DNA of 64,000 nt from Nitrosopumilaceae archaeon (GTDB lineage: Archaea; Thermoproteota; Nitrososphaeria; Nitrososphaerales; Nitrosopumilaceae): positions 32,001 to 96,000 of the forward strand of contig OZ242376.1 in the NCBI GenBank assembly GCA_965209085.1. Direction: 5' to 3'. Shown here one piece after another: positions 40,365 to 43,294 of this stretch. The translations under genes were made by a program, and so were the position numbers. The notes under the pieces were generated by a model, which was given only the letters and a program-made list of their open reading frames with translations, searched no databases and had not been told where the DNA came from. The first letter of the stretch is position 1. Each line of letters starts with the position of its first letter.

Positions 40365-41204
40365 GTGAACAGACTAGGTTCAGCTGCAATCAAAAAAGGA
40401 CACACACTCATCATGGGAATAATCAATGCCTCACCGGAGTCATTTTATTCGGACTCGGTACGCACTAGCGGCGCTAGCATATCTGCCCTGGCCCGCAAAA
40501 TGCAAAACGACGGGGCAGACATTATAGATATCGGCGGCATGTCCACTGCGCCATATCTGAAGACGATGGTAAAACCTCAATTGGAATTACGCAGAATGAT
40601 CAAAGCGGTAAAAGCCGTACGTGCCGCATGCTCACTTCCTGTCTCCGCGGATACGTGCAGAGCCGACGTTGCCGAAGCTGCGTTGGATGCTGGTGCTAGC
40701 ATCATAAACGACGTAACCGGGCTGCGGTATGATTCGCATATGAGCGCACTCATAGGCAGGTACAGACCCTCACTGGTGCTGTGCGCATATGGCGGTTCTA
40801 CGCACAGGGGAAACGGTCTTGGAACGGATGTCTCCTCACTGCTCAAATACAGTGTAAAGATGGCACTCAAAGCCGGATCGCGTAGCAACCAAATTACGAT
40901 AGATCCTGCCATTGGTTTCTTTCGACGCTCCTCAAAATCGCCATTTTTTACAAAAACAAGCTCCGAGCAGATCAAGAGGGATATTTTGGTGCTTAAAGAA
41001 TTAAAAAATATAGGAAGTATGCCGGTATTGGTTTCAGTTTCGCGCAAATCATTTCTTGGCAGCTTTCTTGGATCCTCAAATCCAAAAAGCCGGCTTCCAA
41101 GTTCGCTTGCGTGTGAAATGTTTGCAATACGTTGCGGTGCTAGCATAATACGCACACACAATGTACGTGAGAGCCGCATTGTAGCTGACATGTCACACGG
41201 GTAA
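40365..41204 (+). CDS. folP: Dihydropteroate synthase
   Basis: MGIINASPESF, IDIGG.ST.P, INDVTG, SRKSF, RTHNV. Confidence 0.93.
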   Translation: MNRLGSAAIKKGHTLIMGIINASPESFYSDSVRTSGASISALARKMQNDGADIIDIGGMSTAPYLKTMVKPQLELRRMIKAVKAVRAACSLPVSADTCRADVAEAALDAGASIINDVTGLRYDSHMSALIGRYRPSLVLCAYGGSTHRGNGLGTDVSSLLKYSVKMALKAGSRSNQITIDPAIGFFRRSSKSPFFTKTSSEQIKRDILVLKELKNIGSMPVLVSVSRKSFLGSFLGSSNPKSRLPSSLACEMFAIRCGASIIRTHNVRESRIVADMSHG

Positions 41205-41276
41205 TTGCGTTCAAAACCATTGATTATAATCCAAATTTCTGACAATCTTTTTATCACATATGATCCGCAGGAGAAT

Positions 41277-41714
41277 ATGAAAAAAGTAGTTTACGGCGGA
41301 ATAGGAGTGGCAATTGCCCTGGTTATCATACTGATGTTAAGATCGGCGGCATTTGATGCCACGCCCGGTACGAATTTTGCATACCATACGCTCCTGTCAG
41401 GAGATGAGGATTATAAATCCGGAGTGTACACTGAAAATTTTGATTTATCCGCAGGAAAATATACGGTCAGGTTCATAGCAAGCGGAAGCAGTCCGGAACA
41501 GATCACGATAAATCTTGATGGCAAAACGCTTTTGTTTTCAGAAAATTACAAACTGCAAAGCATTTCTCATAAATCACCAATATCCGAGTATTATACATGG
41601 AATTATGACGGTGTTGAAATGTTTCACAATCCAGAGGGGCAGGCAGTAGAGATTACCATAAACCCGCACGGAAGCACGGATGGTACCGTATCTGTCATGC
41701 TTGAAAAAAGATAA
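41277..41714 (+). CDS. Membrane-anchored hypothetical protein
   Basis: MKK + TM helix + beta-rich domain; start refined to 41277. Confidence 0.7.
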   Translation: MKKVVYGGIGVAIALVIILMLRSAAFDATPGTNFAYHTLLSGDEDYKSGVYTENFDLSAGKYTVRFIASGSSPEQITINLDGKTLLFSENYKLQSISHKSPISEYYTWNYDGVEMFHNPEGQAVEITINPHGSTDGTVSVMLEKR

Positions 41715-41838
41715 TGTCGGCGTGATCCCTCTATTGTAGAACCTTTGGAGATTTCCTCCTCTGTCGGATTAATCCAACACGATTATTGTTCTACGGGATC
41801 ACGCTGGTCTAAGCAATGAGAATTATTACTTTTGACAT
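41703..41838 (-). ncRNA. Candidate structured small RNA with 9-codon 5' ORF (MSKVIILIA)
   Basis: TATA-like TTAAATA ~25-30 nt upstream of ATG 41838; nested stems GCGTGATCCC/GGGATCACGC, GTAGAAC/GTTCTAC and two hairpins; T6 tract at 3' end. Confidence 0.55.
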
Positions 41839-41967
41839 GTTATAGTATACGTTGAAGTTATATTTAAGATTTATCATGATATATTACATAAAAATACTGT
41901 TTTTTATGAAAATATTACATATCTGCTCTATGTGTAACAAGTCAAATAGGATCAGTATCAAATTCGT

Positions 41968-42171
41968 ATGATGGCAAAACTCAATGTAAGAACGATAATC
42001 CTCTTGGCGGTAATCTGGTTTGTGATAACGCTGCCTCTGCCCTGGCTCATAAACAATCCAGACGTGCAAGCGCAGCAACTCTATACAATACTTGGCATAG
42101 TCGGAATCATGTCCATACCGTTTGTCGCACTTGGAATAGCATGGACGTTAAAGCCAGAGCTGACCACATAA
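41968..42171 (+). CDS. Small two-TM membrane protein
   Basis: 67 aa, two hydrophobic helices. Confidence 0.75.
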   Translation: MMAKLNVRTIILLAVIWFVITLPLPWLINNPDVQAQQLYTILGIVGIMSIPFVALGIAWTLKPELTT

Positions 42172-42203
42172 GAAATTAAAGCATGTACGGTGCGGTTGTA
42201 ATT

Positions 42204-42752
42204 ATGAAAGCTACAGATACGTTGCGCGAGGATCACCGTCACATTATGCGGCTTGATGCCGTGATTCAAGATTGTTACAAGGCACTATATTCTGGCATAC
42301 ACATACCTGTTTTGGATATCAGGGAAATTACCGTTATCATATCTGAATTTTTTGACGCCATACACTATGCAAGAGAAGAGGATTCATACTTTGCATGCGT
42401 CGCCGGATACGGTGAATTAAAAGAAGAAATTCGTAAATTTATGATCGAGCACGAATTTGGGCGCAGAATAGCATCCAAAATTTCCAAACATTTGAACGAT
42501 TATGAAAAAGATTGGCAAAGTGCAAGCGAACCTGTGGCCAGATTTTTACGGACATATTCCATATATCTAAACGATCACATCTCAAAGGAAGAGAAATTTT
42601 TTGATCAGGCAGAATCGGACATACTATCCGCAGAAGAGGAACATGAAATGTATCAACAGTTCAACTCTTCGATGGCCACTGCAAAGAAAATCTCAAAGAT
42701 AATTAAACAGATAGAAACTCTTGAAAACATGCCGTGGGCGCATATATCGTAA
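42204..42752 (+). CDS. Hemerythrin-like (HHE) domain protein
   Basis: L..DH..I, H..REE...F, EH..GR, HI.KEE motifs. Confidence 0.88.
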   Translation: MKATDTLREDHRHIMRLDAVIQDCYKALYSGIHIPVLDIREITVIISEFFDAIHYAREEDSYFACVAGYGELKEEIRKFMIEHEFGRRIASKISKHLNDYEKDWQSASEPVARFLRTYSIYLNDHISKEEKFFDQAESDILSAEEEHEMYQQFNSSMATAKKISKIIKQIETLENMPWAHIS

Positions 42753-42784: not shown

Positions 42785-43294
42785 ATGGCATTTGTTCTTT
42801 GGATGACCGGTCTGCCGTGTTCCGGAAAGACCACTCTGGTAAAAAGACTGCAAAAAGACATTCCAAATCTTGCGATGCTTGATGGCGATCAGCTCCGTGA
42901 ATGGCTCTCGCCAAAAGATTTCTCAAAAGAGGCGCGCAACGAACACAACAAAAAAGTGGCACATTTGGCAAAACTCTTGCAAAATCACGGGGTCTCATCT
43001 GCAGTTTCACTGATTAGCCCGTACGCTGAAAATAGAAAAAATGCAAGAGAGATCATAGGCGGCGATACGTTCTCAGAAGTGTACGTAAACTGCTCCCTTG
43101 AGCAGTGTGAAAAACGTGATGTAAAAGGCATGTATGCAAAAGCTAGGGCAGGAGTGATCAAGGGTTTTACGGGCATTGATGATCCCTATGAGGCTCCTGA
43201 AAACCCGGATCTAAAGGTAAATACCGAAAGTGACGGATTGGACGAATCAGCTGCTGTAATATTGGATTATTTAAAATCAAAAAATCAGATCTAA
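42785..43294 (+). CDS. cysC: Adenylyl-sulfate kinase
   Basis: GLPCSGKTT, LDGD, RDVKGMY.KAR.G.I.GFTGIDDPYE.P. Confidence 0.95.
   Translation: MAFVLWMTGLPCSGKTTLVKRLQKDIPNLAMLDGDQLREWLSPKDFSKEARNEHNKKVAHLAKLLQNHGVSSAVSLISPYAENRKNAREIIGGDTFSEVYVNCSLEQCEKRDVKGMYAKARAGVIKGFTGIDDPYEAPENPDLKVNTESDGLDESAAVILDYLKSKNQI

Follow-up and report, generated by a model that had tools for sequence, protein, structure and literature searches.

The 64,000-nucleotide (nt) stretch of DNA analysed here (the window), which belongs to a Nitrosopumilaceae archaeon (GenBank assembly GCA_965209085.1, contig OZ242376.1, positions 32,001 to 96,000 of the forward strand), carries on its minus strand a small RNA gene for which we found neither a matching Rfam 15 family nor a description in print. 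The predicted RNA begins with a leaderless open reading frame (ORF) of nine codons, which harbours a hairpin (P0), continues into a nested domain of four helices (P1 to P4) and ends in a tract of six U. We are nearly certain that the element is a real conserved RNA gene transcribed from the minus strand. It is set beyond chance mainly by its conservation, since full-length homologues occur across the family and their helices show compensatory base changes. The start, frame and stop of the mini-ORF and its distance to the first helix of the domain are conserved as well, whereas the encoded peptide is not. In our favoured reading, which taken as a whole has about even chances of being right, the element is a structured small RNA restricted to this family, with a leaderless mini-ORF that engages ribosomes and a P1–P4 domain that is coupled to translation and acts in trans.

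An earlier reading of the window, made from the sequence only, had picked out a TATA-like box, an ATG, the frame MSKVIILIA-TAG, two stems, two hairpins and a T6 run at this locus, and we recovered every one of them where it had been placed (Table 1). The predicted ends of the RNA, at 41838 and 41704, are set from the promoter geometry and the T-run. The minus strand folds with an energy of −44.5 kcal/mol (z = −4.79), which none of 200 shuffled sequences equalled; for the plus strand, z is −2.86 and 3 of 200 shuffles were as good. The element is present as a single copy in the host genome (G000, 1.69 Mb).

Table 1. Predicted features of the RNA gene and of the divergent genes beside it. Positions are those of the window; bp, base pairs; aa, amino acids.
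Feature	Positions	Strand	Remarks
Whole predicted RNA	41704..41838	-	~135 nt; first base predicted at the ATG, last base at the end of U6; covariance-model match 41706-41838 (G000:C1:73706-73838)
TATA box	41859..41868	-	CTTAAATATA, core TTAAATA; kept in the six-genome alignment
Leaderless 9-codon mini-ORF	41809..41838	-	MSKVIILIA; ATG at 41838, TAG at 41811-41809
P0 hairpin within the ORF	41811..41831	-	41825-31 with 41811-17 in the window copy; predicted in the minus-strand fold
P1 closing helix, 10 bp	41720..41804	-	41795-804 with 41720-29; encloses the P2-P4 domain
P2 helix, 7 bp	41736..41794	-	41788-94 with 41736-42; one-sided 6-nt bulge 41730-35 between P1 and P2
P3 hairpin	41762..41779	-	length and sequence variable
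P4 hairpin	41747..41759	-	GGAGGAAAUCUCC in the window copy; GAGAGG(A/U)AAUCUCUC in most copies; sequence nearly invariant
U6 tract (A6 on +)	41704..41709	-	likely archaeal terminator
67-aa two-helix membrane ORF	41968-42171	+	divergent from the RNA promoter; no Pfam match
Hemerythrin-domain protein	42183-42752	+	divergent from the RNA; PF01814, E = 1.1e-11
169-aa ORF	42785-43294	+	divergent from the RNA; presumably an adenylylsulfate kinase

A plain DNA similarity search detected the element in 7 of 41 related genomes, G000 included, with the similarity centred on the structured part, and covariance models were needed to establish its true distribution. Across an alignment of six genomes from as many genera, the TATA box, the ATG and the helices are conserved together. 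We built one covariance model (R1) from these six genomes and another (R2) from 46 diverse copies; the tallies of both include the unpublished genomes G092, G107 and G108, the sequences of which were not used. R1 matches 136 of the 151 family genomes sampled, 108 of the 115 of high quality and 25 of the 27 genera, with one to four copies per genome and with every listed match full length. In a class-wide sample, R2 matches all 80 family genomes but none of 70 genomes that represent eleven other families; these 70 include six from two families of the same order. The earlier reading had proposed a check for homologues and covariation, and both were found: the matches just described and the compensatory changes presented below.

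Genus g13, which R1 missed, gave weak R2 matches in both genomes examined (E = 3.5e-5 and 1.6e-4). No copy was found in genus g5 (G005, G047, G070 and G089; 0.8–0.9 Mb, 79–95% complete), in which R1 was run on four genomes and R2 on two, and R2 had no match in genome G078. The exact P2 and P4 pattern, with P4 as its anchor, occurs in at least 120 stretches of a species-representative genome collection and in none of the viral contigs searched. Of the 80 titles among the matches listed, nearly all read Nitrosopumilus, Nitrosarchaeum, Nitrosopumilaceae, Nitrosopumilales or Thaumarchaeota; the four odd ones among the matches listed (two 'Nitrososphaeraceae archaeon', one Bathyarchaeota and one Nitrosomonas, the last on a 2.8-kb contig) we take as probable labelling or binning noise. 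Where a genome holds several copies, these paralogues are old and diverged rather than near-identical. At one locus (L104; genome G059, contig C67), two diverged copies stand in tandem on the same strand, at 301-429 and 604-724, about 175 nt apart, one with an 8-codon and the other with a 9-codon ORF.

The helices are supported by covariation. In the alignment of the 46 copies, which was fitted to the model and for that reason favours the structure, standard pairs fill 92.9% of the cells, as compared with 80.7% in column shuffles, and both sides have changed at 23 of the 32 pairs; none of 500 shuffles reached any of the observed measures. Sliding the partners by one to three columns lowered the pairing to 36–49%. 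P1 is paired in 99.1% of cells, with both-side changes at 7 of its 10 pairs, and P2 in 95.3%, with both-side changes at 4 of 7. All five pairs of P3 show changes on both sides, and this hairpin has the highest mutual-information scores. In P4, both sides have changed at 3 of 5 pairs, and three pairs are GC in 45, AU in 43 and GC in 45 of the 46 copies. P0 is paired in 84.9% of cells, with both-side changes at 4 of 5 pairs, and its register differs between paralogues.

The same helices were predicted by RNAalifold from an independent MAFFT alignment. A mutual-information scan returned top pairs that lie nearly all within the proposed helices, and revealed no pseudoknot and no second helix outside P0–P4. 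Two further structural candidates were rejected. A pairing of the 5' AUGUC with a GACAU after P1 occurs in the G000 fold, and G001 has the bases for it, which the other genomes lack. The GA motifs that would be needed for a K-turn in the P1/P2 bulge, or for a C/D-like element in P0, are not conserved, as judged by eye.

The alignment also settles the strand. It contains many G-U pairs, for instance 15 at a single P1 pair, which become A-C mismatches when the helices are read on the plus strand; the RNA is therefore encoded on the minus strand. The earlier reading, which had considered the G-U pairs of the window copy to leave the strand open, is superseded on this point.

The 5' part of the RNA is conserved as an ORF. 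We recovered 75 copies in the genome-search set, with 71 distinct 5' regions, of which 65 begin with ATG, 4 with GTG and 2 with another triplet. Nucleotides 28–30 form a stop codon in 64 of the 71 (TAA in 42, TGA in 14 and TAG in 8). Within nucleotides 4–27, stop codons are present in 4 of the 71 in frame 0, against 52 in frame 1 and 17 in frame 2; the four frame-0 cases correspond to eight-codon ORFs, and one further copy has ten codons. In an independent set obtained by pattern scanning, the ORF is present in every one of the 79 copies whose 5' end is intact; it has nine codons in 72 of them and eight in the other 7, and seven of the 72 also have an in-frame ATG or GTG at −3. About 150 of 154 copies retain a start, an open frame and a stop that lies 3–5 nt ahead of P1. 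The spacer between stop and P1 (4 nt in the window copy) measures 3, 4 or 5 nt in nearly all copies, meaning that single-base changes are tolerated there, whereas the distance from start to stop varies by whole codons only (8 or 10 codons). Judged by this sequence pattern, the small ORF appears to be maintained by selection.

The peptide itself is unconserved, as illustrated by MPKDIIPID, MPMDIISID, MSKVIILIA, MQKDAKSTA, MRKDVNPNK, MSLVTKSNE, MAEKSRQMT, VIVESLQMA, MFVKPLRMA, MSLGIIDFK and MSISVSTE. The richness in Ile, Leu and Val that is apparent in the window copy is peculiar to that copy and its close kin. The suggestion of an undescribed dual-function small RNA (sRNA) or micropeptide, which came with the sequence-only reading, is still viable and is strengthened by the conserved frame of the ORF.

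The flanks of the element point to an independent transcription unit. Where a TATA-like motif is found, it ends 21–23 nt before the first base of the RNA in 59 of 69 copies. In G000, strong TATA motifs upstream of the in-frame ATGs of long ORFs show a spacing peak at the same 21–23 nt (33 of 86 motif hits), as leaderless genes would be expected to show; the genomes of the family are compact, and G000 appears to be rich in such genes. The shared spacing places the ATG of the RNA at the position that the start codon takes in the organism's leaderless mRNAs. At the other end, a run of at least four T follows P1 in 133 of 155 copies, and the median predicted length over those 133 is 135 nt. The conserved TATA spacing and the T-run after P1 agree with the earlier proposal of a stand-alone minus-strand unit with its ATG at leaderless distance, and we conclude that the element probably has its own promoter and terminator, separate from those of the neighbouring genes.

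The commonest gene order around the element is a divergent short-chain dehydrogenase (SDR), the RNA, a convergent ORF of about 145 aa and a TFIIB-type factor (TFB). The convergent protein has an N-terminal hydrophobic anchor that would attach it to the membrane, and no Pfam match. In the window, the corresponding ORF (41205-41714 on the plus strand, 169 aa as listed) probably has its true start further in, and it overlaps the last 11 nt of the RNA (41704-41714), in keeping with the earlier remark that nothing lies downstream to be controlled in cis. The stop codon of this ORF overlaps the 3' end of the RNA in most genomes; a read-through transcript of the ORF would consequently be antisense to the RNA over its full length. 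In 44 of 48 loci, the closest ORF downstream is convergent, so that there is usually nothing for the RNA to control in cis. Other copies adjoin a PurP-like gene (DUF1297/DUF1246), lie directly beside TFB or follow MsrA, or have SOD or CorA downstream on the same strand.

In the mechanism that we propose, a strong TATA promoter would start transcription at or next to the A of the ATG and give the transcript the form of a leaderless mRNA. A ribosome would load on the 5' AUG, read the nine codons through P0 and terminate 3–5 nt before P1. Given the dimensions of the ribosome, the first bases of P1 would lie in the mRNA channel of a ribosome terminating there, which may in this way open the base of the P1–P4 domain. 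Since the peptide varies while start, length, stop and spacing are fixed, the act of translation rather than its product appears to be selected, and the mini-ORF would serve to engage ribosomes rather than to encode a peptide. The folding of the P1–P4 domain, its availability or its stability would in this way be tied to translation, and the domain may act in trans as a protein-binding or base-pairing regulator; the near-invariant P4 and the U-rich 3' tail suggest a protein partner.

That ribosomes engage the mini-ORF, and that this engagement matters for function, is a proposition on which we are evenly balanced. In a variant that we consider unlikely, although conceivable, the mini-ORF would do nothing but load a ribosome and stop it 3–5 nt before P1, and the P1–P4 domain would be opened by that ribosome or presented to it. 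If this variant is true, the RNA would represent a translation-status sensor or a ribosome-directed regulator specific to Nitrosopumilaceae, with no described archaeal counterpart.

Several observations weigh against our interpretation. The transcript, its ends and its translation are inferred. The lack of peptide conservation means that no peptide function is indicated. The counts given above refer to copies, many of which are closely related, so that independent events are fewer than the numbers suggest. One copy (L113) has lost the stop and another (L114) the ATG. At the stop position, about three TGG triplets would be expected if the purines at positions 2 and 3 were independent, and none was seen, which is marginal evidence. 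P0 covaries within the ORF, and the apparent coding constraint could therefore be partly structural. Finally, the copies of genus g13 (genomes G013 and G053; L115:1501-1631 and L116:1501-1631; 62–63% G+C) keep P0–P4 without ATG and stop: CAG...UGC replaces AUG...UAA, and the replacing bases pair (GCAGUUG with CGACUGC), which lengthens P0. This natural 'ORF-less' form implies that the structured RNA can exist without the ORF and is the older or more essential part of the element, and that the 5' region is under RNA-level constraint too.

The g13 copies, in which start and stop are exchanged for a paired extension of P0 while P1–P4 remain, are also the main argument for the element being a plain non-coding structured RNA that no ribosome reads, the AUG, the fixed 27-nt distance and the URR before P1 being RNA- or promoter-level features. 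We regard this as somewhat unlikely, although the covarying P0 that occupies the ORF and the unconserved peptide also lend weight to it; by our estimate, the missing TGG is only marginally unexpected under it. What it accounts for poorly is (i) a frame 0 nearly free of stops next to frames 1 and 2 that are not, (ii) an ATG or GTG start in 69 of the 71 5' regions and the use of all three stop codons at one position, (iii) ORF lengths that change by whole codons although the adjacent spacer changes by single bases and (iv) an AUG at the leaderless-gene position of G000, a genome whose 5S, RNase P and SRP RNAs, as matched by Rfam, do not begin with ATG. The converse possibility, a micropeptide gene with the 9-residue peptide as its product and P1–P4 as a stabilising or terminating 3' untranslated region, would fit the conserved start, length and stop of the ORF and the leaderless promoter geometry. 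It is improbable, since the peptides diverge almost completely between paralogues, P1, P2 and P4 are far better conserved, and the g13 copies keep the RNA without the ORF.

The overlap of the RNA 3' end with the stop codon of the convergent ~145-aa ORF, the prevalence of convergent downstream ORFs (44 of 48 loci) and the full complementarity of a plus-strand read-through transcript to the RNA would all suit an element tied to this neighbour, either as the plus-strand 3' untranslated region of the membrane protein gene or as an RNA acting only on it by overlap and read-through, in the manner of a cis-antisense or terminator element. Such a role has little probability in view of the A-C mismatches on the plus strand, the conserved minus-strand promoter and ORF, and the secondary copies that lie beside unrelated genes (PurP-like, TFB, SOD and CorA). 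An orphaned branched-chain amino acid leader-peptide attenuator, as put forward in the sequence-only reading, rested on the MSKVIILIA of the window copy with its following stems and U-tract. We hold it to be very improbable: the Ile, Leu and Val content is not shared beyond close kin, a co-directional downstream gene is usually missing, and the helices covary as one nested domain, the top mutual-information pairs including none that would form a competing terminator and antiterminator (no dedicated search for alternative folds was made). A mobile repeat (miniature inverted-repeat transposable element, MITE) or a virus-derived element, which the long inverted repeats, the two to four copies in some genomes and the two copies ~175 nt apart on the L104 contig might evoke, is equally improbable. 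The element is single-copy in G000, its main copy sits in the conserved SDR, RNA, ~145-aa ORF and TFB neighbourhood, the P2/P4 pattern has no match in viral contigs, and the paralogues are old and diverged; the MITE match that had been raised as a concern is thereby dismissed.

Comparison with Rfam 15, a check likewise suggested at the outset, yielded no matching family. A scan of window positions 41000-42600 at E ≤ 10 gave four weak matches and no relevant family; only one of the four, CRISPR-DR41, falls inside the element, and it scores 17.6 bits where the cutoff is 36 (E = 3.5). When six diverse members were scanned at E ≤ 1, the sole hit was a tRNA that lies outside the RNA in one locus, and ARAGORN found no tRNA or transfer-messenger RNA (tmRNA) at the window locus. 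We also rejected a universal small RNA, as 5S, RNase P and SRP RNAs were located at other sites of G000 with scores that exceed their cutoffs.

Guide RNAs are recognised by C/D boxes or by an ACA just 3' of a lower stem together with a two-sided pseudouridylation pocket. An H/ACA guide was rejected: the ACA after P1 is seen in G000 and G001 but is not conserved in the remaining four genomes of the alignment, the bulge between P1 and P2 is one-sided, and no snoRNA model matches inside the element. The same lack of a snoRNA-model match inside the element led us to reject a C/D guide. Two weak box C/D snoRNA-like Rfam matches lie nearby on the plus strand, at 41349-41445 and 41270-41336 (snR67, 17.6 bits against 55; sR52, 16.5 against 50; E ~1–2); they lie inside the convergent ORF and are most likely due to chance. 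The 3' strand of P1 in the window copy, GGGAUCACGCC, resembles the 3' end of 16S rRNA, GGAUCACCUCC, a likeness that we set aside as probable coincidence, with P1 covarying freely in other genera. The 5' arm of P4 is Shine-Dalgarno-like (GGAGG in the window copy, GAGAGG in most) and could pair with the 16S 3' end of G000, GGAUCACCUCCU; no start codon follows the arm, and this likeness is probably coincidental too.

tmRNA is a bacterial molecule with a tRNA-like domain and an internal frame that lacks a start codon. The element resembles it in concept only, as a structured RNA whose frame of about ten codons the ribosome would use for something other than making a useful protein. The ilv, trp and his leaders of bacteria are leader-peptide attenuators, and leaderless short-ORF attenuators are reported for mycobacteria in the accessible part of bioRxiv 10.1101/834739. 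Like both, as far as the latter are described there, the element places a very short ORF just before helices and a U-tract, so that the position of a ribosome could affect folding; unlike them, it lacks conserved regulatory codons, in most loci has no gene downstream to control in cis, and has helices that form a single nested domain where theirs are alternative hairpins.

Dual-function sRNAs with a small ORF, including the spRNAs of Methanosarcina mazei, are presented in the accessible parts of PMC11456600 and bioRxiv 10.1101/2025.10.28.685009. Like those described there, the element is a short RNA with a transcription unit of its own, in which a structured or regulatory portion is joined to a small ORF, all of which is here predicted from sequence. 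It differs from them in having an ORF of 8–10 codons with a free peptide, in keeping start, length, stop and distance to the helix, and in being core to a family (80 of 80 genomes). For Haloferax volcanii, the accessible part of PMC12482152 reports sRNAs with ribosome occupancy, most of them without evidence of a protein product, and proposes ribosome-associated non-coding roles. In contrast to these RNAs, defined by ribosome profiling (Ribo-seq) in a haloarchaeon according to that part of the source, our element is defined by comparative sequence analysis, and we claim no relation in sequence or structure. By analogy, the element would work most like a dual-function or ribosome-associated small RNA. 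It is unusual in the extreme shortness and free sequence of its ORF, in the fixed geometry of this ORF to the helix and in its family-wide conservation with old paralogues.

Our search of the full-text literature, which had subscription journals and supplements outside its scope, found no description of the RNA; a transcriptome table may list the locus. In their accessible portions, PMC5069720 names the euryarchaeal RNA Tan1 and no thaumarchaeal one, and PMC13475601, on a soil ammonia oxidiser, mentions only the SRP and RNase P RNAs. The presence of the RNA in essentially every genome of the family, its frequent occurrence as several old paralogues and the strong conservation of its promoter make it likely to matter for physiology. 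Judged by record titles, its carriers are Nitrosopumilus, Nitrosarchaeum and their kin, ammonia oxidisers that rank among the most abundant archaea of marine and fresh waters and play a central part in nitrification. An ultra-short leaderless ORF with a free peptide would also offer a clean natural case in which translation itself can be set against its product as the selected function. The two covariance models and the alignments of about 150 copies allow existing transcriptomes of cultured strains, and marine metatranscriptomes, to be screened directly.

The window copy has the hemerythrin-domain gene on its divergent side (Table 1), and other copies lie near SOD and MsrA genes, company that may be called redox-related.

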